This document shows, in pieces, positions 5,039 through 62,936 of a stretch of 64,000 bases of DNA. A program made the translations under genes and the position numbers. Source of the stretch: Candidatus Saccharimonadales bacterium. Lineage in GTDB: Bacteria > Patescibacteriota > UBA1384 > 2-12-FULL-50-11. The notes beneath the pieces are model-generated. The model made no database searches, was not told the DNA's origin, and saw only the letters and a list, made by a program, of their open reading frames with translations. The stretch lies in NCBI GenBank assembly GCA_035480235.1, contig DATIHX010000003.1:85514-149513 (forward strand), written 5' to 3'. Numbering within the stretch: the stretch's first letter is position 1; every line of letters starts with the position of its first letter.

Positions 5039-5641
5039 ATGACTAAAGAAGAGGCCCTCAAGCTGGTGGCCCAGCGAATCGCTGAGTGCGAAGCCTGCAA
5101 ATTTTACCCCGGCCAAAATCCAGTCCCAGGCGAAGGCAACCCGGAGGCCGAGATTATGTTTATCGGTGAAGCGCCCGGCAAAAAAGAGAACGAGACCGGC
5201 CGGCCGTTTGTGGGCGCTGCCGGGAAATTTTTGGCCGAGATGCTCAACTCGATCGGCCTGGAGCGCCAAGACGTTTTTATCGCTAACACTTTAAAGTATC
5301 AGCCGCCGGAAAACCGCGATCCGTTGCCCGAAGAAATCGAATACCAAAAACCGTTTTTAATGAAGCAAATCGCCATTATTCGGCCGAAAATAATTTGTTT
5401 TCTGGGCCGTCACGCGCTGGCCGCCGTGATGCCCGACGAAAAGCGCACGATTTCCCAGCTTCATGGCCAGTTACTTGAGGGCCCTTCGACTCGCGAAGGC
5501 TCGCTCAGGGTAAACCAGCACTATTTGCCGCTCTACCACCCAGCAGCAGCCCTCTATAACGGCGGTATGCGGGCCACCCTCCTCGCCGACTTCGCCAAAA
5601 TCCCGGAAATAATGGATAAGATTACGACCAAGAGCACTTGA
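5039..5641 (+). CDS. Uracil-DNA glycosylase, family 4
   Basis: CEACKF…GEGNPEAEIMFIGEAPGKKENETGRPFVGAAGKFL is the family-4 UDG signature (GEAPG … F.G.aG). Confidence 0.85.
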   Translation: MTKEEALKLVAQRIAECEACKFYPGQNPVPGEGNPEAEIMFIGEAPGKKENETGRPFVGAAGKFLAEMLNSIGLERQDVFIANTLKYQPPENRDPLPEEIEYQKPFLMKQIAIIRPKIICFLGRHALAAVMPDEKRTISQLHGQLLEGPSTREGSLRVNQHYLPLYHPAAALYNGGMRATLLADFAKIPEIMDKITTKST

Positions 5642-8679: not shown

Positions 8680-8685
8680 GAATAT

Positions 8686-8722
8686 AAAAAAGCCCAGCTC
8701 CAGTTTTTTAAGCTGGGCTGGG
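8686..8722. terminator. Hairpin terminator, copy 1 of a duplicated 35-nt unit
   Basis: AGCCCAGCT-ccagtttttta-AGCTGGGCT lies between the convergent rnj and 8737..9021 genes, with a T-run on the minus strand. Confidence 0.65.
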
Positions 8723-8736
8723 TTGGGTGACGGGCG

Positions 8737-9021
8737 CTACTCAATGTACGGATCGGTGTTCAAGATGGCCCGTGAAAGATTCTCGATCGAATCCAGCCCA
8801 TACTTGCCAGCGAGGGTGAAGAGCTGCTTCTCCAACTGGTCGCGCTGATCTTCCAAGTCGCGGCTGTTGTCGCCGGCCTTGAAGATTTGCCTTAGCCGCT
8901 CATCTTCTTGTAACAGTTCAGCTGCCGCATTGGCGTCGCGACTTCGTTCGTCAAATTTGACGTAGCCGACGGGGGGGATTGAAGGCGGTGTCGCCGGAAC
9001 AGAAGACTGAAACTCTGCCAT
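8737..9021 (-). CDS. Hypothetical small acidic protein (94 aa)
   Basis: GGAGGA lies 5 nt upstream of the ATG (MAEFQSS…). The gene is flanked by the duplicated hairpin. Confidence 0.5.
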   Translation of the reverse strand: MAEFQSSVPATPPSIPPVGYVKFDERSRDANAAAELLQEDERLRQIFKAGDNSRDLEDQRDQLEKQLFTLAGKYGLDSIENLSRAILNTDPYIE

Positions 9022-9093
9022 AATTTCCTCCAGGAACAAACAGTAAAAAAAGCTTAACAAAATACTGATGAACAGTCAAGGGTCAGGTAAAGA

Positions 9094-9127
9094 AAAGCCC
9101 AGCTCCAGTTTTTTAAGCTGGGCTGGG
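9094..9127 (-). terminator. Hairpin terminator, copy 2 of the duplicated 35-nt unit
   Basis: Same sequence as 8687-8722, with TTTTCTTT following on the minus strand. It lies downstream of 9214..9585. Confidence 0.6.
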
Positions 9128-9213
9128 GGTGGGGTCGGGGCTTGAAACCTGGGTTGGCCGGGTGACCGGTGGGATATCGGGTGGCGGCGTTTCCAACCAG
9201 GGGATGTCCTTGG

Positions 9214-31783: not shown

Positions 31784-32110
31784 ATGGCACTACCAAGCCT
31801 TGAAGAAATATTAGAAAAAGACATTTTTGAACTCCTCGGGGTGGAAGGAGCCAGCGACGACCGCAAAAAAGCCTTGCTCGACCAAATGACTCAAACGGTT
31901 GAGCTAAGGGTTGTTAACCGAGTAGCAACAATGCTCAGCGAGAATGACGCCGAAAAATTCCAAGATATCGCCGAAACTGGTGACAGCCAAAAGCTCGTTG
32001 ACTTTCTAGTTGACAAAGAAATTGACCTGCCGCAAATTGTCAGCGAAGAAGCCACTAAGCACCGAGTGGAAGTAGTGGAGCTGGTTAAGCTCGCTGAAGA
32101 GAAGGACTAA
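31784..32110 (+). CDS. Hypothetical small acidic protein (108 aa)
   Basis: Its stop overlaps the start of the next gene (TAATG). No motif confidently recognised. Confidence 0.55.
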   Translation: MALPSLEEILEKDIFELLGVEGASDDRKKALLDQMTQTVELRVVNRVATMLSENDAEKFQDIAETGDSQKLVDFLVDKEIDLPQIVSEEATKHRVEVVELVKLAEEKD

Positions 32111-34992
32111 TGCGCGACGACCGCGCCGAGATGCCGCAACCAGAGGTGACCGGCCCCGAGCCGACGGTATCGACTGACGCTGTTGCGCTGGAAGCGCCGC
32201 CGCTCGCGCCCTTAGTTGAGGCACCCCAACCAACCGAAACAGTTGCTACAACTCCACCGCCAGTTTCCCAACCAGCCCGTCGATTGAATACCCGTGAAAA
32301 ATTTGAGCAAGAACTGGAAACAGTGCGAGCGGCCCTGCCAGACCGGCTGGCAACATCTGAAGCGGAAGTAAAATTCCTGAAGGAGCGTCTAGCTGAAGCG
32401 CCAAATTCGGAAGCTAAAGCGATCGTTCAAAAGGAAATTGATTCGGCTAAAGAGAAGCAAGCAAGTGTATTCCGCGATTACGCCGGTGATATTCTCCACC
32501 GAGCCGAACGCGGCGAAAAAATTACCGAAAACGAGTGGCTAATCGTCGCCCAAGATTACTCGGCCAACGCTGAAAAATCGGCCGGCGCGGAATTTTTTCT
32601 AAAACGACAAGGCTTCGAAACCTTTGAAAAAGGGATGAGAAAAGTTGGCTTAACGACAGCTCGGGGCGAGGCGTTAACAGTTCAATTGGAGAAATCAAAG
32701 GCCCCATCATGGCTCAAAGAGCATATTAATAAAGCCGGCTGGTCAGCGGCCACTTACGCCTTGGCCAGTTGTTTTTTGCCGGTTTCTGCCTTGGCTTTTG
32801 CCAGTAGTATCGGCGGCGGCATTATCGGTCGGTTGGGTGGGGAGTGGCTGCGTGGCCATGAGCTTAGCAAGGTTAGAGGCGAAGGCGATAACAAATATCG
32901 CCTCAATGAAAAAATAATGAACGACGCGCTTAGCCAAATATTTTTAATGAAAACAGAAGCCGAAAAGGCTTTGGCGGCGGCCAAAAATCCGAATGAACGC
33001 GCTCAAGCTCTGGGTAATTTGCTCTCAAAAATAGGGACTGCCGAGATTAAGGATATCGCCACCTATCAAAAAGTTGAGAAAACGGCTGCCAAATGGAAGG
33101 CTATTGGCGGTTTTCTGGGTTCAGTTGGCGTCGGTTCGCTGGTTAACCATTTCTTTGTGACTGGGCATCAGCTTGCGGCGGAAGTGGCTAAAGCCAAGGC
33201 GGAGGGAATTCATATTTTTCACGACGCCGCTGGCGCCCACATCACTGCCGATCCAACGCAAGGGCACGTTGTTAAAGAATCGCTCGATGGTTTCTGGCGG
33301 GCCGTTGTAAACAAAAAAGATCTTGGCGATCTGGCCACTTCGGTTAGTCAACACAGCGCTGGGGTTAATAATTACTTTCACGCCTATCTTGGCGATCACG
33401 TTGGTTTAGTTAGTCAACAAGCTAGATATGGTCAGGAAATGGTTCACGCCTTGGTTCGCGACCTACCAGCAAATTTGGCTCGGCCCGAGGCCGCCCAAGC
33501 GGCCACCGATTCATTCTTAGGCGCTTCGGTTAACAGCGCCATTAACGAATTAGTTCGCCAAACATTTATTAAGTCGACGCTGGTAATGGTTGGTGCGGCG
33601 GCTGTTAGTGAATCAGCTTTTCTGCGCTCCGATACTGCTAAGGTTTCGGCCGAACGGCTGCGGGCGGAGAACCTGCCGTTGATTAATGAACTCGAGGCTG
33701 AAGCCCTGTTTCAGCGTCAAAAAGTCAAGCCCGAAAAAGAGCCCAAGCCCAAAAACGAGCGCGAACGGTTAGAAAAACTCGCTCGCAAACTCCACGTCGA
33801 GTTACCGGAAAGTCCGCACGGTTTCGAAGAGGGTTGGTATAAACAGCCACACTTACTTCAGGATCGATTTACATTAGCAAAATTGCCGCGTTGGCCACTT
33901 ATAGGCTCTGATGGTAAGAATATTGTGGAAAACGGCCAAGAGAAACGTGATGGTGTGGCCGAGGTTGACGTAGATAATAATAAGATTGTCGTCGTTTCAA
34001 AGCGGCTGGACGGCAGCTACGACCATCACACTATGAAAATAGACGATTTTTTACGGACGCATGGCAAGCCAAAGATCGCTACCCCTTCCCAGGCGGCTCC
34101 TACCGAGAGTCGACCCCCCCAAGAACAACCCCGCCGACCTGGCGTGGCCGAACGTCTCGACCAACTCCAGTTTGATAACAACGATATAATGAATGCAGTC
34201 TTGGAGGAAGTGCGCCACGGTACACCACTGGCTGAAGATATTAAAAATGCCCCTACTAGCGCCGCTCTTTCCCAGGGTTTGTACCGGATTGTTCGCACAC
34301 TAGCCGAAGGCTGGGATGGCCTTGACGAAGCGACCCGTCGCGGTAACGCCACCTTTAAGTTTGAGGCAATCCGCGAAGGCGACCGGAACGTCACCGCGAT
34401 CACCCTGTATAATCCAGATAACACCAAGGCGATATTGCGCCTGAAACGGGCTGGCGATGGGTATAGGATTACCCTAGAGGACGCCGATGGGGCCTTACTG
34501 GGCGTTCGTAACGAGCGGCCAATTACCGTTGGCCCAGTGGCGGCTTTCTTGCAAGAATTAACCGAGCGCTTCCAAGCTTTGGACGATATCGCCCCTCCCG
34601 CCCCGCCCGCTCCACCTGTTCCGGCACCAGCTCCAACACCACTGCCGCCTGCTCCAGCTCCTGTGCCGACCCCGCCCGTTCCTGCGCCGAGACCACCGGA
34701 CGTCGAGCCAGACGAACAGAATGAAGAGGAGATTTTTAGCCAGGCCGACTTTGACGAACACGATGCTATTCAGCCAATGGCTGAAATCCCGCCAGCTATT
34801 TGGAGTTTTATCACCCGCAGTTTGCCCGACCCGATCGATCCCGAGTCCGGTCTCATTCGCTACCGTAACGCGGACGTTGCTAATGAAAAAATTACGCTCA
34901 TTAATGCTGCCGGCCGGGAACAGGAATTCCGACTGCCATTTATTCAAGGAATTATCGACCAATTGGAAACCACTGAAGACGAGGAAAGTTAG
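32110..34992 (+). CDS. Large orphan protein (960 aa) with hydrophobic segments and a proline-rich linker
   Basis: Uninterrupted ORF with hydrophobic stretches (…ATYALASCFLPVSALAFASSIGGGIIG…, …AIGGFLGSVGVGSLV…) and PPAPPAPPVPAPAPTPLPPAPAPVPTPPVPAPRPP near the C-terminus. Confidence 0.65.
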   Translation: MRDDRAEMPQPEVTGPEPTVSTDAVALEAPPLAPLVEAPQPTETVATTPPPVSQPARRLNTREKFEQELETVRAALPDRLATSEAEVKFLKERLAEAPNSEAKAIVQKEIDSAKEKQASVFRDYAGDILHRAERGEKITENEWLIVAQDYSANAEKSAGAEFFLKRQGFETFEKGMRKVGLTTARGEALTVQLEKSKAPSWLKEHINKAGWSAATYALASCFLPVSALAFASSIGGGIIGRLGGEWLRGHELSKVRGEGDNKYRLNEKIMNDALSQIFLMKTEAEKALAAAKNPNERAQALGNLLSKIGTAEIKDIATYQKVEKTAAKWKAIGGFLGSVGVGSLVNHFFVTGHQLAAEVAKAKAEGIHIFHDAAGAHITADPTQGHVVKESLDGFWRAVVNKKDLGDLATSVSQHSAGVNNYFHAYLGDHVGLVSQQARYGQEMVHALVRDLPANLARPEAAQAATDSFLGASVNSAINELVRQTFIKSTLVMVGAAAVSESAFLRSDTAKVSAERLRAENLPLINELEAEALFQRQKVKPEKEPKPKNERERLEKLARKLHVELPESPHGFEEGWYKQPHLLQDRFTLAKLPRWPLIGSDGKNIVENGQEKRDGVAEVDVDNNKIVVVSKRLDGSYDHHTMKIDDFLRTHGKPKIATPSQAAPTESRPPQEQPRRPGVAERLDQLQFDNNDIMNAVLEEVRHGTPLAEDIKNAPTSAALSQGLYRIVRTLAEGWDGLDEATRRGNATFKFEAIREGDRNVTAITLYNPDNTKAILRLKRAGDGYRITLEDADGALLGVRNERPITVGPVAAFLQELTERFQALDDIAPPAPPAPPVPAPAPTPLPPAPAPVPTPPVPAPRPPDVEPDEQNEEEIFSQADFDEHDAIQPMAEIPPAIWSFITRSLPDPIDPESGLIRYRNADVANEKITLINAAGREQEFRLPFIQGIIDQLETTEDEES

Positions 34993-52850: not shown

Positions 52851-54374
52851 TCACTCGCTGTAGCCGGGGAAGTAGTCGGTCACGACTTGCTTTTTCGGCA
52901 GCCCGAGGCTCGCCAAAACTTGCTCAGCGGCCTGAACCATCGGTTGTGGCCCGGAGACGTAAAACGTCCGTTGACGATAATCGGGAATCGTCCGGCAAAC
53001 CAGCTCTTTACTAATTAACCCGACCTCGCCCGGCCAATCGGCTGGCAGAGCCGCCGAATCGGTCAGCGTATAAATTGTTTTCAAGCCTTTCGACTCAGCT
53101 TGACGAAACAAATCGGCGAAAACTATATCATTAACCCGCTTGTTGCTAAACAATTGAACGACATCACGTTGGGTCTGGGTGTCCACCAATTCTTTAGCGA
53201 AGGCGCGAAACGGTGCAACGCCAACGCCACCAGCGATAAAAGCTAGCTTCTTTTCGGTATTTTTCGGCAGCACAAAATCACCAAAGAGTGAGCCGGCGGC
53301 CACCAAATGATTTTTGGGCATTAGTTGTAGCGTCTGCTTGTAAGAGCTGGCCGATGTTGGAAATTTGACCAAAAGTTGGAGACTTGACTCGGTTGGCGAC
53401 GAGGCGATCGTGAAGTACCGGCGGTTACCTCGCCCGTCAACTGGTGAATGTGGGAGTGTCCATTCTAAATATTGACCGGAGCGAAACCGGAAACCGACCG
53501 GCTTGTTGAAATAAAACAGCCAAGTGTCGCGGGTCAGTTGCCGTTTTTCCAGCAGCTGAAGATCGAATTGCAGTCGGGTCTTTATGACGGCGCTAACCAG
53601 GTTACCGGCCGTCAAAGCCAATTCCGGCGTTAAGCTCAGCGGTAAAAAATGAAGCTGCGGGGTCGCGTAAAGAACAGCAACTAAGCCGGCGTACCAATTC
53701 TGGCCGGCCCGACTCGTCGGTAGCGTTCGCGGTTCGGTTAACATCACCAGCGCGAAAAAGAATAGCGCCGAATTGGTGGCGGCGAACCACAGGGTGTGGA
53801 CAAAGCTCAAGGGGTGGCCGGCGACCAAGCTGGCAGCCATCACTAAAACTGTGTAAACGCCCAAAAACCACCAAACTAAGTGGGTTCGGTTGAGTTTGCG
53901 CTGGAGTAGTAAACCGCCGAGCAATACCGGCATAACCAAGTAAATATTTCCCACCCACCAGGTGGCGGCGTGTTCCGGCGAGAGCAAGCCGATCATCGCG
54001 ATGGCCGCCGCGGCCGGATTGAAGATGTGAGTTTTCTCAACAGTTAAAAAATATTTCGTTGCCATCGCCACGACGCTGGCGAAGATTGCCACTGGTAAAC
54101 CGGCAGTGGTCGCCGGTACTAAGAGGGCGATAATCAGCCCCGTAATCAGGGCCGATTCGGTGTTGGTGGCAGCCCCAAAGAGCCGGGCCAAGAGCCAGTT
54201 GGCGGCGTAACCGGCGCTGACCGCGCCAATGGCGTTAATGGCGATCGTTATTGGTTGGTAGTGAAGTAAACCGACCATCGCCAAGCCGATCGCCGTCACC
54301 AGCAAAAAAATTAGGTAGTAAACCGTCAGCCGGTACATCGTGACGGCGTTCAAGAAGCGGTCGATTATCTTCAT
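52851..54374 (-). CDS. Fusion protein: RnfD/NqrB-like polytopic membrane domain plus an FNR-type FAD/NAD(P)-binding reductase
   Basis: N-terminal half: …THIFNPAAAA… and …FFFALVMLTEPRTLPTS (RnfD/NqrB-like). C-terminal half: RRYFTIASSP (RxYS/T), FIAGGVGVAPF, and FYVSGPQPMV. Confidence 0.7.
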   Translation of the reverse strand: MKIIDRFLNAVTMYRLTVYYLIFLLVTAIGLAMVGLLHYQPITIAINAIGAVSAGYAANWLLARLFGAATNTESALITGLIIALLVPATTAGLPVAIFASVVAMATKYFLTVEKTHIFNPAAAAIAMIGLLSPEHAATWWVGNIYLVMPVLLGGLLLQRKLNRTHLVWWFLGVYTVLVMAASLVAGHPLSFVHTLWFAATNSALFFFALVMLTEPRTLPTSRAGQNWYAGLVAVLYATPQLHFLPLSLTPELALTAGNLVSAVIKTRLQFDLQLLEKRQLTRDTWLFYFNKPVGFRFRSGQYLEWTLPHSPVDGRGNRRYFTIASSPTESSLQLLVKFPTSASSYKQTLQLMPKNHLVAAGSLFGDFVLPKNTEKKLAFIAGGVGVAPFRAFAKELVDTQTQRDVVQLFSNKRVNDIVFADLFRQAESKGLKTIYTLTDSAALPADWPGEVGLISKELVCRTIPDYRQRTFYVSGPQPMVQAAEQVLASLGLPKKQVVTDYFPGYSE

Positions 54375-55129
54375 GCGGTACTTGTTTGTAAAACCAAGCG
54401 GTCAAAGCCGCTGGTTAAGCGAGCTCGGCCGCTCGCTAAAACGGCGTAAGCCTCAAAGCCGGGAAGCTTTTCAATAAATGCCAGGCCGCCTTCGCCCATT
54501 GCAAAGGCGGCGGTTGCCATCCGATCGGCTTCGTAAACATTGGGCCCGATGACGGTTAAGCTTGCCACATTTTCCAGGTTTTGGCCGCTGACTGGGTCGT
54601 AAATGTGAGCGCCTTGCACATAATTGCCGCTGGTGGCGACTCCGGCGTTCGTTAACGCAAGAGTTTTGATAATTTCTGAAGGGTTGAATGGGTTACGAAT
54701 ACCGTAGCGCCACGTTCGTCCGGGTTGGGCGACGCCGCTCACCTGAATATCGCCGGCGATTTCGACGGTAAAATTCCGGTAACCCTTGGTTTGTAAGAGT
54801 TTGGCGCCCTGCCAAATCGCCCAACCCTTGACGAGGCCGGAGGGGTCAATTTGGCCGTCCGGTCGAGTGATATTAAAGAAGCCGTCGGTTTCCGTCTGGG
54901 TCTGTTCGCAGAGCGCCAAAACAGTTTTCAGCGCTTCGCTCAACTGTTCAGGTTTCAATTCGCCACGATTGAGTTGCGACAGTTCGCTGGTCTTCTTGAA
55001 TGGACTGAACCGCTGGTCGATCGTTTGCCAGAGTCGGAAAATTGCAGCGACATCACTCTGGCGGACAGACTGTTCAGCTACCTGAATGATCCCGGTCATC
55101 CCCATCGTCTCGAAGCGGCGTCTAACCAT
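54371..55129 (-). CDS. apbE: FAD:protein FMN transferase (ApbE family)
   Basis: DPSGLVKGWA, VATSGNY, HIYDPVSG and EADRMATAAF are ApbE motifs. No obvious signal peptide. Confidence 0.8.
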   Translation of the reverse strand: MVRRRFETMGMTGIIQVAEQSVRQSDVAAIFRLWQTIDQRFSPFKKTSELSQLNRGELKPEQLSEALKTVLALCEQTQTETDGFFNITRPDGQIDPSGLVKGWAIWQGAKLLQTKGYRNFTVEIAGDIQVSGVAQPGRTWRYGIRNPFNPSEIIKTLALTNAGVATSGNYVQGAHIYDPVSGQNLENVASLTVIGPNVYEADRMATAAFAMGEGGLAFIEKLPGFEAYAVLASGRARLTSGFDRLVLQTSTA

Positions 55130-55609
55130 CTAGATCGCCTGGCTGAGGGCCGAGCCGAGCGACTGAATGAAGGCGCCGGAAGTGGCCGAGGCGCCAGTGA
55201 CGCCATCGACATTGGCGCTTTGGGCCTGAATTGCTTCTTCTTTTAAGAGTGGCATCGCTTGGCTATTGATGCGGTCTGACGTGCCGTTGTCGCTCGGATG
55301 ATCCAGGAAGATGACGTCGGTGATTTTTCCACCAGTAATTACCACCTCCACTTGGACGTTGCCGTAAAAAGCGTCGGCGCTGATGCCGGTATAGCGACCA
55401 TTTTTGTAGCGGCCGGTCGGGGTAGTTACTGCTGGCGGGGAAGTAACAATCGATGTTGGCGAGCTGCTGGTTGGCACCGGTTGGTTACTGACAGCGGAGT
55501 TAGCCGGTAAGCCAACGATTGGATTAGCTGCTTCCGGGTGACGGTCGCGCCACCAAACCAAGGCAAAAAAGACCGCCAAAATGAAGGTAATCTGGCTGTA
55601 TTTCCTCAT
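55130..55609 (-). CDS. Membrane-anchored FMN-binding domain protein (predicted flavinylation substrate)
   Basis: N-terminal TM helix, a Ser/Pro/Thr linker, and an FMN_bind-like core with VDGVTGASATS (Dxx[ST]GA[ST]) encoded at 55188-55210. Confidence 0.75.
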   Translation of the reverse strand: MRKYSQITFILAVFFALVWWRDRHPEAANPIVGLPANSAVSNQPVPTSSSPTSIVTSPPAVTTPTGRYKNGRYTGISADAFYGNVQVEVVITGGKITDVIFLDHPSDNGTSDRINSQAMPLLKEEAIQAQSANVDGVTGASATSGAFIQSLGSALSQAI

Positions 55610-55665: not shown

Positions 55666-55842
55666 TTACCCGTCACTTTTTTTGCCGATGACGAAGCCGG
55701 CCCAGATGCCCAGTAAGCCGCCAATCGCCGCCGTTACCTGGCTGGCTAGGCTAAAGATGTTGCCGCCCCAGAGCTCCGGCGCCAAAGCGCCGAGCGTCGA
55801 GCCGACGAAAAGTCCGAGCCAAACCCAAGTTTTCAGCGACAT
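55666..55842 (-). CDS. Small membrane protein (58 aa); not in the supplied ORF track
   Basis: MSLKTWVWLGLFVGSTLGALAPELWGGNIFSLASQVTAAIGGLLGIWAGFVIGKKSDG has two Gly-rich helices. It explains the spurious N-terminal extension of ORF 55682. Confidence 0.45.
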   Translation of the reverse strand: MSLKTWVWLGLFVGSTLGALAPELWGGNIFSLASQVTAAIGGLLGIWAGFVIGKKSDG

Positions 55843-55909
55843 TAATTCTACCCTACCACATTACCCTGTTCACTGGAGTAGAACTGGTTTATACTGGCAA
55901 AGAATAAAA

Positions 55910-56863
55910 ATGCCTAAACTGCCGATTGTTTTTGTCCAGATCCCCTGCTTAAACGAAGAGCGAACGCTACCACTGGTGCTAAAGGGCGTCCCGAAAAAAA
56001 TCCCCGGCGTCGGTAGTGTGGAAATATTAATTATCGACGACGGTTCAAGTGATCGGACAATCGCCGTCGCCAAAAAACTCGGGGTCAAGCATTTCGTTTA
56101 CCATCGGCGTAACCAAGGGTTGGCCCGGTCGTTTCACGACGGCGTTAGTTACGCTCTCGAACATGGCGCCGATATCGTGGTGAATACCGATGGCGACAAC
56201 CAATACCCCCAAGAAAAGATCGGCGAATTAGTCGCCCCGATTTTGGCTGGGCGAGCCGACGTCGTCATCGGAGACCGACAAACCCAACGCATTAAACATT
56301 TTTCGCGAGGAAAAAAGTTCTTCCAACGTTTCGGCAGCCGGATTGTTAGCGCCGCCGCCGGCGTCACCGTGCCGGATGCGGTCAGCGGTTTTCGGGCCTA
56401 CTCGCGCGAAGCCTTACTCCAAATTAACACCATCACCCGCTTTAGTTACACCACTGAAACGATTATTCAGGCCGGCCACAAAAGGCTGTCGATTGCCAGC
56501 GTGCCGATCAAAACCAATAAAAAAACTCGAGAATCACGTCTTTTCAAATCGACCTTCGAGCATATTAGCAAGTCAGCCACCACGATTGTCCGCTCGACGA
56601 TCATGTACCGGCCGTACGCCCTTTTTGGGACGCTGGGAGGAGTGCTGCTGATCGCTGGCCTGGTGCCGTTCATCTATTACCTGGTCCTCTACTTTTTGGG
56701 TCACCAAAACGGCCACCTCCATTCGTTGACGCTGGGCGCGGTTCTCTTAATCAGCGCCCTTTTGTCGCTAGTTTTAGGAGTTCTGGCCGACTTAATTCGG
56801 ATCAATCGGATTTTACTGGAAGACTTACTTGAGCGGGTTAAAGCCAATCAGATTAAGAACTAA
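55910..56863 (+). CDS. Glycosyltransferase family 2, polyprenol-phosphate glycosyltransferase type (GtrB/ArnC/DPM1-like)
   Basis: …IIDDGSSDRT…, …NTDGDNQYP… (DxD), and two C-terminal TM helices. The ATG at 55910 is preferred. Confidence 0.85.
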   Translation: MPKLPIVFVQIPCLNEERTLPLVLKGVPKKIPGVGSVEILIIDDGSSDRTIAVAKKLGVKHFVYHRRNQGLARSFHDGVSYALEHGADIVVNTDGDNQYPQEKIGELVAPILAGRADVVIGDRQTQRIKHFSRGKKFFQRFGSRIVSAAAGVTVPDAVSGFRAYSREALLQINTITRFSYTTETIIQAGHKRLSIASVPIKTNKKTRESRLFKSTFEHISKSATTIVRSTIMYRPYALFGTLGGVLLIAGLVPFIYYLVLYFLGHQNGHLHSLTLGAVLLISALLSLVLGVLADLIRINRILLEDLLERVKANQIKN

Positions 56864-58354
56864 CTACCTTGCTTTGACGGTTAATCGCTCGATCAGGAAC
56901 GGCTTGATGATTGCTTGGGCTGTTTGGTTGGCCCTCACTGCCGCGCTTTTTGGCCACCACCACGACGGATTAGTCGAACTCATATAATTAATGACGCCGC
57001 CGCCTTGCAGTAACAGCAAAATCACCACCAGCGCCAGCCCCGCTTGCCAGTGCCGCTTTTTGACCGCCTCGGTGATTGCCCAACCCAGCAGCAGTAAGAG
57101 CGCTGGGAAAATTGGGAAAAGATAACGGGCCTGGATAGCGGTGTATTGTTGGAGGCCGTGGTACTCGGCAAAATTTAACAGCCAGAGCGCGGCCACATCG
57201 GTGCCCACCACCACTAGTAGTAAACTGAAATGCGGCCGGCGAGCGGCCAGCCGCCGCCCGAAAACCAGCAGCGCTACCAACCCACCGCTAAAAATAAGGC
57301 CAGCGGTAATTTCCGGCAACAAAAAAGCGCTGCCGGTAGCGTAATCTTGGCGAATCACAAAAAACGGCTGTTGCCACATCCGCCAGGCCCAAACGCCGGT
57401 GAATTTCAGCGGGTTACCGTTAAAACCGGTAGTTTTTTGGGCGGCGTAGTGGAAATTCCGGGCCCACGGCCCGTAATCCAGGCACGGGTCGGTGCCGATC
57501 ACCCTACCACAATCGGGTACCAGCTCGTGGTATCGGGCCACATTGTAGCCGTAGCGTTCAATAAACAATCCGCCACTAAGAATAAGCGCAGTAATCAGCA
57601 ACATTTTGACGGGCAAAGCAATTTTCGTCCAACTGTTTTTGAGTGATTTTGCTAAAGTCCGCCGTTGTCGCCACCACTGGGCACCGAGATAAATTGCTAG
57701 CCCAGCCATAATTGGTAGAAAAGTGTATTTTACTAAACTGGTCAGGAGCGCTAAGATGATCAGCCAAAGCAGTTTAGCTGCGTCAACCCGGACAGCCTTC
57801 AAAGCATTGGCGACTTGGGCTGTTAACAAAAGGCTCAAAGCGGTCAGTGGGAAAAGTAAATTGTCGTAGTTAATCTGCCCGGCCAAGAAGGGGATTTGCG
57901 GTAAAAGTATTAACACTACTAGGACGACGTTGCCGAGCGCCCCGCTCACCCCAAGGCAACGAAAAACTTTTTTCCACAACGCTAAACCACTGGCAAAGAG
58001 GAAGACGTTAACTATGCGCAAGGCCACGATTTGATCGGCCGTGTTTTTAGTAATTACTTCAATCAACCGATATAAAAAGCTCAGAAGATAATGAAATAAA
58101 TAGGACGGGTAGCGGGTGACGTCGCCAAGAATACTCGCCCCGGCCGGTTCGTGGCGGAAAAAAGGGCTCAGTTGATGGCTGTAGAGCTGAATTAGGCCGA
58201 AGTGGTAATTCTCGTCGAAAGCCATCGGATAGCGGGCCGAGAAGGCGATCCAGAGCGCTTCGATCACAAACGCGGTGATTATCAGTCGATAAAAAAAGTC
58301 GGCCGCCAATATGCCACGCCACCGTTCGCTCCAGCTCCTCATCTTACTACCCAT
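56864..58354 (-). CDS. GT-C fold membrane glycosyltransferase (ArnT/PMT-like)
   Basis: At least 11 predicted TM helices, and a first-loop acidic motif AFDENYH typical of GT-C enzymes. Confidence 0.55.
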   Translation of the reverse strand: MGSKMRSWSERWRGILAADFFYRLIITAFVIEALWIAFSARYPMAFDENYHFGLIQLYSHQLSPFFRHEPAGASILGDVTRYPSYLFHYLLSFLYRLIEVITKNTADQIVALRIVNVFLFASGLALWKKVFRCLGVSGALGNVVLVVLILLPQIPFLAGQINYDNLLFPLTALSLLLTAQVANALKAVRVDAAKLLWLIILALLTSLVKYTFLPIMAGLAIYLGAQWWRQRRTLAKSLKNSWTKIALPVKMLLITALILSGGLFIERYGYNVARYHELVPDCGRVIGTDPCLDYGPWARNFHYAAQKTTGFNGNPLKFTGVWAWRMWQQPFFVIRQDYATGSAFLLPEITAGLIFSGGLVALLVFGRRLAARRPHFSLLLVVVGTDVAALWLLNFAEYHGLQQYTAIQARYLFPIFPALLLLLGWAITEAVKKRHWQAGLALVVILLLLQGGGVINYMSSTNPSWWWPKSAAVRANQTAQAIIKPFLIERLTVKAR

Positions 58355-58371
58355 ACTATATAATTCTAACT

Positions 58372-59283
58372 GTGAAAAACTTCATAAAAAACCGTCGGGT
58401 GCGGGTGGTCTTAGTTGTCAGCATTTTGCTGGCCACGACGCTGGTCTTTGTCCGCTTCTTTTTAACCCACCCCGAGTACTGGGCCACGCTCACCGGCGTC
58501 TCGGTCGCCACCGTCGGCTGGATCGTTTTATTAAACCTGGTTGGTTTAACTATTTTGGTAGCGATAAACGCTTGCTTGCTGCGCTTCTGCGGCGTCAAGT
58601 TGGGGTTTTTAGAGCAGTTTCAACTGACCAGCTACTCGGCGATCGCCAACTTTTTCGGGCCGTTGCAAAGCGGGCCGGGCGTCCGGGCGGTTTATTTGAA
58701 AACCAAATACGGCGTTCGGCTACGTGACTACTCGCTGGCGGCCGCCCTTTACTACGCTGTTTTCGCCGTGTTGAGCGCTGTTCTGCTGTTCGGTTTTTCC
58801 CAGCCCTGGTGGCAAGCGCTGCTCCTGGTGGCAGCGGTCGGCGCGGTTGTTGTTGGTGTTATCCGTCGGTATAGCCGGGGCGCCGGTTCGGCCGCAACCG
58901 GCTGGCACTTTGACGCTGCGGCTTTTGGCGTCCTGGTAATTCTAACGGCGCTCCAGCTGGTAGTTATCGCCCTCTGGTATTTCGTCGAATTGAAAGCGGT
59001 AGCGCCGGCTGTCACTCTTCGTCAAGCGCTGATTTATTCGGGCGCCGCTAACTTCGCCTTATTTGTCTCTTTAACGCCGGACGCCATCGGTTTTCGGGAA
59101 GCTTTTTTAATTTTTTCGGCCCGCCTTCACGGCCTGGCGACCGCGGCGATTATCAGTGCCAATCTGCTGGACCGGGCCGTTTACGCCGCTTTTTTGGGCG
59201 GTGTCTTTTTAGTACTCTTGGTTACCCACGCCACCCGTCGCTTCAAAGGTTTCCCAAAGCCCGCCCCAGCCGCCCAGCAATAA
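58372..59283 (+). CDS. Polytopic membrane protein, UPF0104/lysyl-PG-synthase-TM-like (flippase-like, tentative)
   Basis: About eight TM helices. Its glycosylation-cluster context fits. The call is tentative. Confidence 0.4.
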   Translation: MKNFIKNRRVRVVLVVSILLATTLVFVRFFLTHPEYWATLTGVSVATVGWIVLLNLVGLTILVAINACLLRFCGVKLGFLEQFQLTSYSAIANFFGPLQSGPGVRAVYLKTKYGVRLRDYSLAAALYYAVFAVLSAVLLFGFSQPWWQALLLVAAVGAVVVGVIRRYSRGAGSAATGWHFDAAAFGVLVILTALQLVVIALWYFVELKAVAPAVTLRQALIYSGAANFALFVSLTPDAIGFREAFLIFSARLHGLATAAIISANLLDRAVYAAFLGGVFLVLLVTHATRRFKGFPKPAPAAQQ

Positions 59284-60370
59284 TTTTGGTGGCAAATTTC
59301 TGCTCAAAAAGCTGACGGCCGTTTGCGCCGATTTTCATTAGTTCGCTCGGGTGGGCCGCTGCCCAGCTGATAGTTGCCGCCAGCGCCGCGGCGTCGCCTT
59401 GTGGCACGACCAGCGCGTTTTGTTTATCGCTAAAATCGTTCGATGCCCGGTTTTGGCCGACCACCGTTGGCCTCCCGCAGGCTAAAAATTGATAGGCTTT
59501 GCCGGTCACCACCATTTGCGCTTGCAGCGTATCGCCGAACGGCCCGGCCAAGCAGAGCGCACTTTGCTTGATAGCTTCGGGTAGTTCGTCAAACGGAATC
59601 CACTTTTTATACTCGACGTTAGCACCTTTACTTTTCGCGGCTCCGATTTTTTCGGCCGCTTTCGGCCCGCCGCCAACCAGTAAAAAAACCACCCCTTTAT
59701 CGCTTAAGAGCGATAACGCCGCTTGGAGCACAACGTCCAAACCGTGGAGCGGCAGCATACTGCCGTAATATAAAACCTGAAATATAGTAGATCGCTTTTC
59801 CCCTCCGTCGCCACTCTTCCCATACGTCATATCCGATGTATGAGAATTTCGGCCAGGAAATTTTTTGGCAATTATTGGCTGGAAAACGGTTTCATCGGTG
59901 CCGACGGGAAGTGCTAGGTATTTTTCTAATGGCACGTTACTGCGTTGGGAGGAGTATTGGGCGTGGGCGGGTGTGTCGGCCAGAATGAGCCGGCATTTTT
60001 TTAGCTGCCGGCCGTACCATGAGTTTAGTAACTTCGCCGCCCAACTGTTTTTGGAAAGTTTTTTGTGCTCGTCCACTACCCATTCGGTCAGATTAATAAA
60101 CTCATCAAAAATCACCGGCGTTTTACCGGCGACGAGTAGCAAAAACGGCAAAATTTCGTAACCGCGGAATGTTAACAAAAATACGTCCGGCTTTTCTTGG
60201 CGCTTAACAATAATTATTTTCCGGATCACTTCAAAGTAGCGACCCAAACCTTTTTTGGAATTTTTAACAATAATCGTTTCCACGCCCGGCAACTGCTTCA
60301 GTGCTGAACGCAACACTCGGGCCCGAACGTAATCGGGCTGTCCGTAACAAGTAATAACGGCAATTTTCAC
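59243..60370 (-). CDS. Glycosyltransferase (GT-B, family 1/4-like)
   Basis: MKIAVITCYG… N-terminus and a C-terminal …VGGGPKAAE… …CLAGPFG… pattern. It is convergent with, and overlaps, the upstream gene. Confidence 0.65.
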   Translation of the reverse strand: MKIAVITCYGQPDYVRARVLRSALKQLPGVETIIVKNSKKGLGRYFEVIRKIIIVKRQEKPDVFLLTFRGYEILPFLLLVAGKTPVIFDEFINLTEWVVDEHKKLSKNSWAAKLLNSWYGRQLKKCRLILADTPAHAQYSSQRSNVPLEKYLALPVGTDETVFQPIIAKKFPGRNSHTSDMTYGKSGDGGEKRSTIFQVLYYGSMLPLHGLDVVLQAALSLLSDKGVVFLLVGGGPKAAEKIGAAKSKGANVEYKKWIPFDELPEAIKQSALCLAGPFGDTLQAQMVVTGKAYQFLACGRPTVVGQNRASNDFSDKQNALVVPQGDAAALAATISWAAAHPSELMKIGANGRQLFEQKFATKIIAGRLGRALGNL

Positions 60371-60395: not shown

Positions 60396-61517
60396 TTAAT
60401 TACAGCTGGCAGAGGCACTGGCAGTCGCGTAACCGTCGCCGGCTGAGGCGCTGGCCGAGGCGGAACAAGTGAGAGTTTGGTAGGTGGTAATAGTTGTCGT
60501 TTTCACGACCCGTCGAGTAACTTTTTTCTTTGGCTTAATTGGCTGGTTGGCAATTAATGGAGTGGCGGTCGCCGAGCCGCTATTTTTTTGATTCGGGCCA
60601 GCAGAGTTTTGAGTGACGGGTTTATTTTGAGCAGCTGGTTGGTTGCCAGCTGGTGCACGGGTGCTGCCGGGAATCTGATTAGCGCCATTAGTCGCCGGGG
60701 GCTGGTTAACGGCCGGCGGTTTTTTGAACGGCAATTTTTGGCCGGACAGGGCCATGACAGCGTAGGCGGTATTCAAATAGTTAGCAGCGCTGCTTTGCAG
60801 CCAAAAGCCGCCGTTTTGTTCTTGACCAAATAAATAATTTCGGACGGCTGATGGGTCTTGGCCGAGCGCGTTCTGGGCGATCATCGCCCAGGCCGCGGTG
60901 GCGACGTTGGAAACTTGGCCGGGCAAAACGGCAAAGCCGCCATCGGCGTTGTGGCAGTAGGTCAAAAAAGTAGCGGCGTCGTTGAGTGTACTGGTGGGTT
61001 GATTAGTGGCCAGCCGTAAAGCCCAAATCGCGGCCGAAGTAATATCGCCGTCGCCGCTCCCGCCGGTGCTAAAGCCGAAACTGCCGTCGGTACGCTGGCT
61101 AGCAGCGATAGTGGTAAAAACGCCCTGACGCCCGGCCAGCCAATTTGGGTCAGCGCCCGCCACCGCTAAAACTCCAAATATGTCGTCGTTAATTAAACTG
61201 GGCGAGCCGAATTGGTCGTTTTGGTAAGCCGCTTCAATCTGACTGATTTCATTTTGATCGGTTGCGCCCTGAGCGGCTCGGGCCAGAGCGTTGCGTTCCA
61301 AACTCAGTAGCGACGAAGCGTCCGGCGCGCTGGGATCGGTGCTAATGCCGTTTTCTCCTAAACCGATCGCCGCCCAGTCGCGGTTGCCAGCGCCCTGGCC
61401 GGAGTAATTAGTTTGCAAATAGTTAATGGCCGATCCCAAAGGGCTAGCGGCTCGAGTTGTGAGGACCGGCCAGATTAAAGCCGCCGCCAGTAGGCCAACA
61501 AAAACTCGCTTCCACAT
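60396..61517 (-). CDS. Secreted alpha/alpha-toroid (prenyltransferase/squalene-cyclase-repeat-like) protein with a low-complexity tail
   Basis: Signal peptide, then repeated units: …RTDGSFGF…SAAIWAL…, …NADGGFAV…ATAAWAMIA…, …EQNGGFWL…NTAYAVMAL… These are followed by a Q/N/P-rich linker and C-SASASASAGDGYATASASAS-C-N. Confidence 0.5.
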   Translation of the reverse strand: MWKRVFVGLLAAALIWPVLTTRAASPLGSAINYLQTNYSGQGAGNRDWAAIGLGENGISTDPSAPDASSLLSLERNALARAAQGATDQNEISQIEAAYQNDQFGSPSLINDDIFGVLAVAGADPNWLAGRQGVFTTIAASQRTDGSFGFSTGGSGDGDITSAAIWALRLATNQPTSTLNDAATFLTYCHNADGGFAVLPGQVSNVATAAWAMIAQNALGQDPSAVRNYLFGQEQNGGFWLQSSAANYLNTAYAVMALSGQKLPFKKPPAVNQPPATNGANQIPGSTRAPAGNQPAAQNKPVTQNSAGPNQKNSGSATATPLIANQPIKPKKKVTRRVVKTTTITTYQTLTCSASASASAGDGYATASASASCN

Positions 61518-61538
61518 CTTTCGTATATACCGAGAATT

Positions 61539-61567
61539 AAAAAAAAGAGCAAGGTAGAACCTTGCTC
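61539..61567 (-). terminator. Rho-independent terminator of 61572..62102
   Basis: On the minus strand: GAGCAAGG-ttcta-CCTTGCTC followed by TTTTTTTT. Confidence 0.85.
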
Positions 61568-61571
61568 GGAG

Positions 61572-62102
61572 CTAGCGCCGATGCCGATTGCTGGCATAGG
61601 CATTGAAGGGTTGATGGAATTGCCCCTCAAAAGCCGCGGAGAACGGAACGAGCGCCAGATCCTTTTGCAGCATCGGCGTAGTTGGGCTTTGCATCCAGGT
61701 AATGACGTCGCCGTTGGTCACGGTGTCGTGGTCAGCGGCGTCGGCGCCGTTCGGGCCTTGGCCAAACAGCGGCTGGTCGTTAACTTCGTACGTCAGGCCG
61801 ATACCCGGATCAACGGTTTTGCCGTTATAGGTAATGGTGGTGACGAATTCACCGTTATCGTGCTGGTCGCCGTTGGCCCAGTAACCGTTGCGTCGACTGG
61901 CTTCGAAAACAGTCCCGTCGCCATCAACCGGAATTCTGACAAATTGGAGAATGTCGCTGCCAGCCCCACCGCCACCACAGCCGACTTCCGCCGAAACCAC
62001 CAGCGAGATAACGCCGGCTTGCAAGAGACGAACAGCAAAGATACCGGAGCCAGCGTAAGCGCTCGTGATGGCCAGGAATTGCCGCCGAGATATTTTTTCC
62101 AT
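61572..62102 (-). CDS. Tat-signal secreted protein, DUF4430 (transcobalamin-like C-terminal domain)-like (tentative)
   Basis: Twin-arginine motif SRRQFL plus a hydrophobic region. …LTYEVNDQP…GADAADHDTVTNGDVITWMQ resembles the DUF4430 end motif as I remember it. Confidence 0.4.
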   Translation of the reverse strand: MEKISRRQFLAITSAYAGSGIFAVRLLQAGVISLVVSAEVGCGGGGAGSDILQFVRIPVDGDGTVFEASRRNGYWANGDQHDNGEFVTTITYNGKTVDPGIGLTYEVNDQPLFGQGPNGADAADHDTVTNGDVITWMQSPTTPMLQKDLALVPFSAAFEGQFHQPFNAYASNRHRR

Positions 62103-62216
62103 GTAACGTGCGTTACCTCCTTGTAAGGTTGTTCTGTTATTGTAAACAATTTTAGCGGCGAGGCAACTGGCCGCCGAGTTCCTGAAAGGCAGTTTTCTTG
62201 GTAAGATGAAAAACTA

Positions 62217-62936
62217 ATGGTCGCGCTGATCGCTTTAATTACCGCTTCGGCCACGCTGCTCGGCGGGCTTTTCGCGCTGAAATACCGCGATAAACTTCAT
62301 TTAATTTTGGCTTACAGCGCCGGCGCGGTGATCGGCGTCGCCTTTTTCGATTTATTACCAGAATCGTTTGATTTAGCCGCCGGCCGTTTCGGGGCGCTAA
62401 CCGTCACAAGTTTAGTTGCTCTCGGGTTCATTATTTACACGGTTTTAAGCCACGCTTTAGCTTTTCACGTTCACGCCGACGAAGACGGTGAGCATAATCA
62501 CGCCGAAGGCGAACTGGGCGCCGGTAGTTTATCGATCCACAGTTTTTTGGACGGCTTGGGTATTGGCTTGGCTTTCAAAGTCTCACCGGCGATCGGTATT
62601 GTGATAGCGCTCGGCGTTATTGCCCATGATTTTTCTGACGGCCTGAATACCGTCACCATGATTTTGAAAGATAACGGTAATCGAATCCAGGCCTTGCGAT
62701 GGCTCTTGGTGGACGCCGCCGCGCCGATTATCGGCATTATAGTTGCTTCGTTTGTTCACGTCAGCGACTCAACCCTCGGCCTTGTCTTGGCCGTGTTTGC
62801 CGGTTTCTTCTTCTTTATCGGTGCCTCAGATTTGCTGCCGGAATCGCGCCACCATCACCCGAAATTCTGGACGGTTTTGCTGACGGTGGCCGGCATGGCC
62901 ACTATTTATCTCGCGATTCGGCTGGCTAACTTTTAA
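62217..62936 (+). CDS. ZIP-family divalent metal transporter (ZupT-like)
   Basis: …HSFLDGLGIGLAF…, …IAHDFSDGL…, and a His/Asp/Glu-rich loop (HVHADEDGEHNHAEGE). Confidence 0.85.
   Translation: MVALIALITASATLLGGLFALKYRDKLHLILAYSAGAVIGVAFFDLLPESFDLAAGRFGALTVTSLVALGFIIYTVLSHALAFHVHADEDGEHNHAEGELGAGSLSIHSFLDGLGIGLAFKVSPAIGIVIALGVIAHDFSDGLNTVTMILKDNGNRIQALRWLLVDAAAPIIGIIVASFVHVSDSTLGLVLAVFAGFFFFIGASDLLPESRHHHPKFWTVLLTVAGMATIYLAIRLANF

Follow-up and report, generated by a model that had tools for sequence, protein, structure and literature searches.

Here we describe two adjacent genes in a 64-kb stretch of a Candidatus Saccharimonadales metagenome-assembled genome (hereafter the window), which an earlier note had proposed to encode the two halves of a transcobalamin-like surface protein split over separate genes. 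Both open reading frames (ORFs) that the note had located are present; they lie on the minus strand, which the note had not stated. The upstream ORF encodes a small protein of 176 aa, identical to VLE93_00835 at NCBI, and the downstream ORF encodes a protein of 373 aa, identical to VLE93_00830, that we refer to as the toroid. The two ORFs are in frame with each other and are separated by a spacer of 54 nt.

The pairing of these genes extends well beyond the window. At every related locus with a visible upstream region (L001–L009, L015, L016 and L017; L and P numbers denote related loci and proteins throughout), a small lipoprotein gene precedes a toroid gene on the same strand, and in the window, L001–L009, L015 and L016 the small gene lies ~50–60 nt 5′ of the toroid gene. 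The toroids of these paired loci share 39–66% identity, and the genes flanking the pair differ. We found 13 close toroid homologues in the same range of identity, all of them from Patescibacteria where a source is named. The subfamily is small: no more than four species-representative genomes and five metagenome contigs gave matches to it, and the named sources are all Patescibacteria or Saccharibacteria. The family of the small protein is tiny and very divergent; a word-indexed homologue search with this protein returned only the protein itself. An exhaustive HMMER search yielded P0023 and P0024 as weak candidate relatives, which we judged to be composition-driven and set aside.

The toroid begins with a signal peptide (MWKRVFVGLLAAALIWPVLTTRA, followed by AS) in which, read by eye, the basic n-region, the hydrophobic core and the small residues at positions −3 and −1 are conserved. 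The mature protein contains three [DN]G[GS]F motifs at a spacing of ~45 residues, a number that was reached in 0 of 20,000 shuffles. PF00432 (Prenyltrans) matches the protein at 29.2 bits (E 8e-7), over the gathering cut-off of 26.5, and a profile built from 11 toroid homologues matched class II terpene cyclases (7xqz, E 7e-18), squalene-hopene cyclase and RabGGT-beta in the PDB. These data agree with the description in the earlier note of a signal-peptide protein carrying three or more repeats of the prenyltransferase/squalene-cyclase type. Where class II cyclases carry DxDD(T/S)A, the toroid reads D156-G-D158-I-T-S-A, a correspondence made by eye; D156, D158 and T160 are invariant, and DxD[IM]T holds across the family. 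The toroid is a single domain of ~235 aa, without the beta-gamma didomain of class II cyclases, and TIGR01787 scores 15 on it against a cut-off of 323. Given the lack of the DxDD acid motif and the evidence of secretion, we read the sequence as that of a protein that is probably a binding module rather than an enzyme. No match to PF01122 (Cobalamin_bind) was found at E ≤ 1, and the PDB search with the family profile returned no transcobalamin, intrinsic factor or haptocorrin chain at E ≤ 0.01.

The kinship with terpene cyclases leads to one alternative reading of the pair, in which the toroid binds or processes isoprenoids or other lipids of the host membrane and the lipoprotein acts as its membrane-proximal partner. 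Saccharibacteria are lipid auxotrophs, sequence searches match the toroid best to class II terpene cyclases and to the beta subunits of prenyltransferases, and the invariant D156 and D158 correspond to the first and second Asp of DxDDTA. However, the third Asp of that motif is replaced, the protein is one compact toroid lacking the didomain, and it is secreted on a stalk, far from cytoplasmic prenyl diphosphates. Its nearest non-enzyme relatives, moreover, are partnered or fused with DUF4430 and with S-components of energy-coupling factor (ECF) transporters, which is a context of water-soluble cofactors. On balance, we consider lipid scavenging improbable.

Some toroids of the subfamily occur in a longer form (P0009, P0011, P0013 and P0014; L006 5356..6945, L007 5512..6918, L008 4477..5877 and L009 5419..6915), bearing an extra conserved N-terminal domain of ~110 aa (...KQDDTGFIYSLIG...FWGFW...FG(N/D)G..P...C). 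We considered whether this extension might be a fused DUF4430 domain and rejected the idea, as it has no Pfam match and the hhalign probabilities were 2.8% with the small-protein family and 0.1% with DUF4430 domains. The long-form toroids are still preceded by a separate upstream lipoprotein gene.

The small protein begins MEKISRRQFL, and the twin-arginine signal that the earlier note had recognized there (SRRQFL) is supported by alignment, with [ST]RRx[FL][LF] kept in 9 of 10 orthologues. The family profile matched the N-termini of 6ttd (E 0.008), SufI and AioB in the PDB, which are signals of the twin-arginine translocation (Tat) type, while the Pfam TAT_signal model gave a sub-threshold 10.8 bits. 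After a hydrophobic stretch follows a lipobox-type Cys (Cys42), a point absent from the earlier note, which is present in 10 of 10 orthologues with Gly or Ser before it and poly-Gly after it. Cys42 is the sole Cys of the mature protein, and in the window copy position −3 of the lipobox is taken by Glu, which is atypical. The twin-arginine motif, the hydrophobic stretch and the invariant lipobox Cys together lead us to predict that the small protein is a Tat-exported lipoprotein, and throughout the family these extracytoplasmic features go together with a toroid gene that is always directly 3′. The C-terminal extension of 38 aa is confined to the window and L002 copies, and AlphaFold (AF2) modelled it with a predicted local distance difference test score (pLDDT) below 50.

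The earlier note had also likened the C-terminal part of the small protein to DUF4430, the transcobalamin-like C-terminal domain. For a profile-profile comparison with hhalign, ten domain sequences of the small-protein family served as the query, and the reference held only three DUF4430-type domains, from L010 (PF14478, 35.5 bits), P0016 (PF14478, 32.3 bits) and L013, two of which pass the Pfam threshold. The two profiles aligned over 58 columns with a probability of 72.8%, an E-value of 3e-5 and a score of 32.9. By comparison, 200 column-shuffled decoys had a mean score of 9.6 (standard deviation 2.0, maximum 16.6) and reversed decoys scored 8.7 and 10.1, placing the small-protein family ~11 standard deviations over the decoys.

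Structure prediction may point the same way. An AlphaFold model of the small protein built on a five-sequence alignment had a pLDDT of 63 (core 60–88) and a predicted TM-score of 0.55, while a single-sequence model had a pLDDT of 31 and was unusable. In this moderate-confidence model the secondary structure elements follow the order beta-(beta)-alpha-hairpin-beta-beta-beta. The same order, a beta-grasp whose helix is followed by an inserted hairpin, has been given for the transcobalamin-like SLBB clade (PMC1796856). The top four Foldseek matches of the model in the PDB, at non-significant E-values of 0.6–0.8, included two with sensible superpositions, the beta-grasp protein ThiS and 3u7z, a bacterial DUF4430 crystal structure that superimposed with a root-mean-square deviation of 3.3 Å over 80 columns (TM 0.48, E 0.8).

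Distant relatives of the toroid provide a further line of evidence. Toroids from L010, L013/L014, P0017, P0018 and P0019–P0022 are homologous to the window protein at E-values of 1e-8 to 1e-10. At L010, the gene with the PF14478 domain ends 10 nt 5′ of a toroid homologous to the window protein (E 7e-10), and so takes the position of our small gene. P0016 is itself a fusion of a toroid with PF14478, and P0019–P0022 are fusions of an ECF S-component with a toroid. The profile-profile score, the topology of the model, the positional equivalence at L010 and the fusions of toroids with DUF4430 or ECF-S domains suggest that the small protein is quite likely a divergent DUF4430/SLBB domain. The resemblance that the earlier note had seen stands as a similarity between profiles far over that of decoys, but it falls short of the Pfam gathering cut-off.

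Between the toroid domain and the C-terminus lies a stalk that varies in length and sequence among homologues while its character is conserved. Beyond it, the earlier note had pointed to an odd tail of the form C-...-C-N, and this tail proved to be conserved in all homologues. In the window it reads C-SASASASA-GDGY-ATASASAS-C-N, and neither Cys varies in any of the 11 homologues compared. They are always 20 or 24 residues apart, a distance made up of a pair of arms, each of 8 or 10 residues in which Ser and Ala alternate, on either side of a 4-residue turn that is rich in Gly, Asp and Asn; both arms lengthen in step. The same Cys-(SA)n-Cys tail forms the C-termini of P0003–P0014 and of the toroids of L006–L009 and L016–L020. 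Six-frame translation of 217 kb revealed no tail of this type on any ORF other than these toroids, for which reason we rejected the idea of a general sorting signal for the sequence sampled, and the NCBIfam sorting-signal models did not match the toroid tail. In more distant toroid homologues the same kind of stalk leads instead to a transmembrane (TM) helix followed by basic residues (P0017, P0018 and P0019) or to a peptidoglycan-binding domain (P0015). As the tail occupies the position of these modules, attachment of the toroid to the envelope is its most likely role, and we infer from its sequence a disulfide-closed amphipathic beta-hairpin as the anchoring element.

An envelope-glycosylation block lies 3′ of the toroid in the window (55682..60370), comprising a family 2 glycosyltransferase (GT2), a 496-aa multi-TM protein without a Pfam family, an LPG_synthase_TM-like protein and a GT1/GT4 glycosyltransferase. 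The block is syntenic in L001 and is not conserved at other loci; it could glycosylate the Ser-rich tail or the stalk.

The stalk and tail also bear on a second alternative, that the pair is a structural or adhesive component of the envelope, for example with a toroid that binds glycan or peptidoglycan for attachment to the host. A stalk with a silk-like Ser-Ala tail may resemble surface fibrils or adhesins, the distant homologue P0015 bears a peptidoglycan-binding domain, a VWA/CLIPPER protein and a sortase are encoded directly 3′ of the toroid in L003, and glycosyltransferases stand 3′ in the window and L001. Yet such neighbours are not conserved across loci, no Pfam glycoside-hydrolase or lectin match was found, and an adhesive role would leave the strict pairing with a DUF4430-like lipoprotein unexplained. 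We see little likelihood in this reading.

We lean towards regarding the pair as a bipartite cell-surface ligand receptor of the bacterial transcobalamin-like type, composed of a toroid and an SLBB/DUF4430 beta-grasp domain. In the arrangement that we infer, which extends to the physical interaction of the subunits, the ligand, the importer, and the disulfide hairpin with its anchoring role, the small subunit would be exported by Tat, lipidated on Cys42 and held at the membrane by its Gly-rich tether. The toroid would be secreted by the Sec route and sit on its long Pro/Asn/Gln/Thr-rich stalk, with the tail hairpin attaching it to the envelope. The two subunits would then clamp a small cofactor between them, in the way that the domains of transcobalamin close on B12, and pass it to an importer encoded elsewhere. 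The most likely ligand would be a corrinoid or haem, a metallated tetrapyrrole in either case, which this reduced-genome bacterium would be unable to make itself.

The concept of a toroid/SLBB receptor is not new, having one computational description from 2007 and one experimental example. SLBB-toroid pairs were predicted as B12 scavengers by Burroughs, Balaji, Iyer and Aravind (2007, PMC1796856), and in Lactobacillus sakei haem uptake requires the split pair Lsa1839 (beta) and Lsa1840 (alpha) together with an ECF module (Verplaetse et al., bioRxiv 10.1101/864751). Our pair shares with the systems of Burroughs et al. a secreted or surface-anchored beta-grasp protein and an alpha/alpha toroid, encoded by adjacent genes or as fusions in organisms without biosynthesis of the cofactor. 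Its profile similarity to DUF4430-type domains lies far over decoys, and the modelled hairpin after the helix may be a further likeness to the SLBB clade. It differs from them in several respects: its PF14478 match stays under the gathering score, no CbiO/CbiQ (ECF) module adjoins it, it belongs to Patescibacteria rather than Firmicutes or archaea, and in place of an LPXTG-anchored beta protein we find a Tat/lipobox lipoprotein next to a toroid with a Cys-(SA)n-Cys tail.

What our pair has in common with L. sakei Lsa1836-1840 is the splitting of the beta and alpha parts over two neighbouring genes. The L. sakei pair is the only experimental case, and it demonstrates that pairs of this kind can have haem as their ligand. 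However, the Lsa genes form one operon with EcfA/T/S and their deletion impairs haem uptake, whereas our pair has no linked importer. Eukaryotic transcobalamin, intrinsic factor and haptocorrin (PF01122 plus PF14478) likewise sandwich one ligand between an alpha/alpha barrel and a beta-grasp domain, but they do so in a single chain with the alpha part first; here the two parts are separate proteins, the beta part is encoded first, and PF01122 and the three carriers have no sequence match. Related systems are also the patescibacterial pairs of L010 and L013/L014 (proteins P0017 and P0018) and the actinobacterial ECF-S-toroid fusions of the SCO2321 family (P0019–P0022), which have a homologous toroid, small-then-toroid order, and a stalk with a C-terminal anchoring module. 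Unlike the window subfamily, these relatives use a TM-helix anchor, and their small protein has an N-terminal TM segment or a Sec signal followed by a long linker. L013 further encodes DUF6580 and NrdJ, both missing from the window subfamily, which has the lipobox and the Ser-Ala hairpin tail instead. In the literature library searched, we found no paper linking DUF4430 or prenyltransferase-like surface proteins with Saccharibacteria.

Table 1. Positions of the gene pair, its parts and its nearest neighbours in the 64-kb window
Feature	Position	Strand	Basis
NRAMP-family transporter gene, cut by window end (context)	62933..>64000	-	PF01566 E 3e-59
ZIP-family metal transporter, divergent (context)	62217..62936	+	PF02535 E 5e-19, ZupT-like
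Putative sigma-70-like promoter of the small gene, TTGCCT-16 nt-TACAAT	62139..62166	-	consensus scan
Shine-Dalgarno AAGGAGG, 13 nt 5′ of the small-gene ATG	62116..62122	-	sequence reading
Small-subunit gene, 176 aa, predicted Tat-exported lipoprotein with likely DUF4430/SLBB-like domain	61572..62102	-	ORF
Twin-arginine motif S5-R-R-Q-F-L10	62073..62090	-	alignment of orthologues
Lipobox-like E-V-G-C42, then Gly-rich linker	61977..61988	-	alignment
Likely beta-grasp (DUF4430/SLBB-like) domain, residues 54-138, ends LTYEVNDQP...GDVITW	61689..61943	-	Pfam, AF2, Foldseek, hhalign
C-terminal extension of the small protein, 38 aa (SPTTPMLQKDL...NRHRR)	61575..61688	-	alignments
Terminator-like hairpin in the inter-gene spacer, 9-bp stem and U8	61539..61567	-	scan
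Toroid-subunit gene, 373 aa, secreted alpha/alpha toroid	60396..61517	-	ORF
Sec-type signal peptide, residues 1-24, cleavage predicted between TRA and AS	61446..61517	-	sequence reading, alignment
Alpha/alpha-toroid domain, about residues 27-262, three [DN]G[GS]F...TA[AY]A repeats, DxD[IM]T	60732..61439	-	PF00432, PDB profile, repeat statistics
P/A/N/K/Q-rich stalk, ends in basic, Thr-rich segment KPKKKVTRRVVKTTTITTYQTLT	60468..60731	-	composition
C-terminal tail C351-(SA)4-GDGY-AT(AS)3AS-C372-N	60399..60467	-	alignment; hairpin and anchor putative

Signals for expression recur alongside the pair (Table 1). Promoter-like hexamers are found at the equivalent position 5′ of the orthologous small genes in L001 and L002, and the GGAGG of the ribosome-binding site is kept in L001–L003. 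The hairpin in the spacer of the window has a GC-rich stem (ΔG −14 kcal/mol, z −6.2), and a hairpin with a U-run occupies the equivalent 50–60-nt spacers of L001, L002, L003, L007, L008 and L009. At least 7 loci, including the window, thus carry such a hairpin, with ΔG values from −14 to −25 kcal/mol, z-scores from −5 to −7 and at least 4 unrelated stem sequences. As the stems are unrelated across loci, it is the structure and not the sequence that is conserved. The hairpin suggests that the two subunits are expressed to different extents, or that the toroid gene has a start of its own. The sequence GGTATAT(A/G), which follows the hairpin 6–9 nt before the toroid ATG in the window, L001 and L002, is possibly the −10 element of a near-leaderless toroid transcript.

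The earlier note had placed ZIP and NRAMP transporters next to the pair, and genes of both families (PF02535 and PF01566) do adjoin it, the NRAMP gene being partial in the window. The ZIP gene is syntenic in L001, L002 and L015, and the NRAMP gene has its full length of 456 aa in L001 and L002, where a gene of 204–209 aa, absent from the window, stands between NRAMP and ZIP. A Fur-family gene divergent from the small gene also lies near the pair in L001 and L002; the window is without one. Between the Fur-family gene and the small gene of these two loci we noticed a perfect palindrome, GCAAC-TAA-GTTGC (L001 ~5400–5420, L002 ~5310–5330), which is a candidate operator. We looked for it as a Fur-box near the pair in the window and dismissed this possibility, as GCAAC-N3-GTTGC is absent there, with two one-mismatch copies elsewhere against 2.85 expected.

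These neighbours are compatible with a metallated cofactor as the ligand, and they also support a third alternative, in which the pair is a surface module that binds a metal or metallophore and captures or buffers Zn, Mn, Fe or Cu ions for, or from, the transporters next to it, with no tetrapyrrole involved; or they may simply reflect synteny in a small genome. Genes for metal transport stand around the pair in two distinct arrangements. Besides ZIP and NRAMP in the window, L001, L002 and L015, and Fur in L001 and L002, a P1B ATPase gene lies 82 nt 5′ on the same strand in L016, a CopA/HMA cluster lies near the pair in L003, and the depositors of 3u7z labelled it a 'putative metal binding protein'. 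Set against this, no metal gene was detected near the pairs of L004/5 and L006–L009, and the mixture of importers and exporters argues for synteny in the metal islands of small genomes rather than one pathway. The mature small protein lacks a conserved His or Cys cluster, and the palindrome beside the Fur genes of L001 and L002 is not shared by the window. We know of no toroid/DUF4430 pair that binds free metal ions, and consider this reading unlikely. At the same time, ZIP and NRAMP neighbours say nothing specific about corrinoids.

Evidence on the identity of a tetrapyrrole ligand comes from distant relatives. In favour of a corrinoid, the adenosylcobalamin-dependent NrdJ (TIGR02504, 576 bits against a cut-off of 400) is encoded beside the toroid of L013/L014, which is the only link to B12. 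There (L013 877..6773, L014 523..6305) NrdR is followed by NrdJ, a 57-aa ORF, the genes for a small secreted protein and the toroid, and finally that for a membrane protein with DUF6580. The toroid fusions P0019 and P0021 also contain DUF6580, together with S-component families of ECF transporters. We regard it as a candidate for a corrinoid permease or an S-component; searches found neither literature on it nor a PDB match or an NCBIfam name. In favour of haem, L010 adjoins a haem-copper oxidase operon. A literature search on the class of ribonucleotide reductase or the use of B12 in Saccharibacteria turned up nothing usable.

Other genes around the pair vary. Directly 3′ of the toroid, L003 has the VWA/CLIPPER protein and sortase mentioned above (7134..9208), L001 has a reverse transcriptase (RVT_1) insertion (7131..8138), and L006 has, as judged by eye, a VirB2/TrbC-like small membrane protein and a 426-aa multi-TM protein (7098..8710). 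Elsewhere in the window, three consecutive minus-strand genes (52851..55609) encode a 507-aa NQR2/RnfD-like and NAD-binding membrane protein, an ApbE flavin transferase and a 159-aa secreted protein with an FMN-binding domain, which look like an extracytoplasmic flavoprotein/electron-transfer module. A plus-strand ORF of 960 aa (32110..34992) matches no Pfam family at E ≤ 1e-5.

Several results weigh against the transcobalamin-like receptor that we favour. The PF14478 match of the small protein, spanning profile positions 3–68 of 72, scores 17.7 bits (E 0.005) and is under the gathering cut-off of 23.8 bits; at E ≤ 1 the model matches only 2 of 10 orthologues, the window copy and one other, and it does not match the family consensus. 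The family profile retrieved no DUF4430, transcobalamin or intrinsic factor chain from the PDB by sequence, no Foldseek match of the model was significant, transcobalamin was absent from the top 50, and the model itself is of moderate confidence and derives from a shallow alignment of five sequences. The strong terminator-like hairpin splits the pair and may make strict co-transcription of the two genes doubtful. Finally, the recurrent neighbours are metal-ion transporters and regulators (ZIP/NRAMP/Fur; P1B-ATPases). A scan of 50 ORFs, nearly all distinct ORFs of at least 150 aa in the window, found no ECF or BtuFCD component, DUF6580 or B12-dependent enzyme, and the 64 kb contain no cobalamin riboswitch. 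None of these occurs within 6–8 kb either side of the pair at the subfamily loci, where local phmmer searches of the flanks of L001–L009 and L016–L020 gave no ECF-S or DUF6580 homologue and EcfA/T were sought in the window only. The BtuFCD- or ECF-type importer that the earlier note had named as a check is missing from the window. Of its proposal that the pair is a split corrinoid scavenger, the two-gene surface unit of toroid and DUF4430-like protein is supported, but corrinoid specificity is conjectural: no B12 gene or riboswitch lies nearby, and the one split pair studied by experiment takes up haem rather than B12.

Taken at face value, the sub-threshold Pfam match, its absence in most orthologues and the hairpin between the genes could mean that the two genes are unrelated neighbours and the resemblance to DUF4430 a chance motif. 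Against this, order, strand and spacing are kept even though the toroids have diverged to 39–66% identity and the flanks differ, the hhalign score lies ~11 standard deviations over the decoys, and L010 shows positional equivalence. We regard mere coincidence as very improbable.

What is new in the pair, relative to the systems already described, is its occurrence in a lineage of the Candidate Phyla Radiation (CPR), the lack of ECF linkage, the metal-transporter neighbourhoods, the lipoprotein beta subunit, the conserved intergenic terminator hairpin and the Ser-Ala hairpin tail. A more specific reading that joins these features is that Saccharimonadales have a lineage-specific, ECF-independent means of capturing a metallo-tetrapyrrole of the host (B12 or haem), with the toroid anchored by a disulfide-stapled, silk-like (Ser-Ala)n beta-hairpin. 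We think this full combination rather unlikely; if true, it would provide a new class of envelope attachment motif and a molecular handle on the cofactor supply of episymbiotic CPR bacteria. With its invariant Cys-(SA)n-turn-(AS)n-Cys layout, the tail forms a small, sharply defined motif that could be investigated separately.

Like other CPR bacteria, Saccharibacteria live on other bacteria and possess very small genomes. A conserved transcobalamin-like surface pair in this group would be a testable candidate for cofactor capture at the interface with the host, and would extend the idea of the toroid/SLBB receptor to a CPR lineage and to a setting without an ECF module and with metal-transporter neighbours. 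Such a pair might also serve as a target in efforts to block these organisms or to cultivate them.

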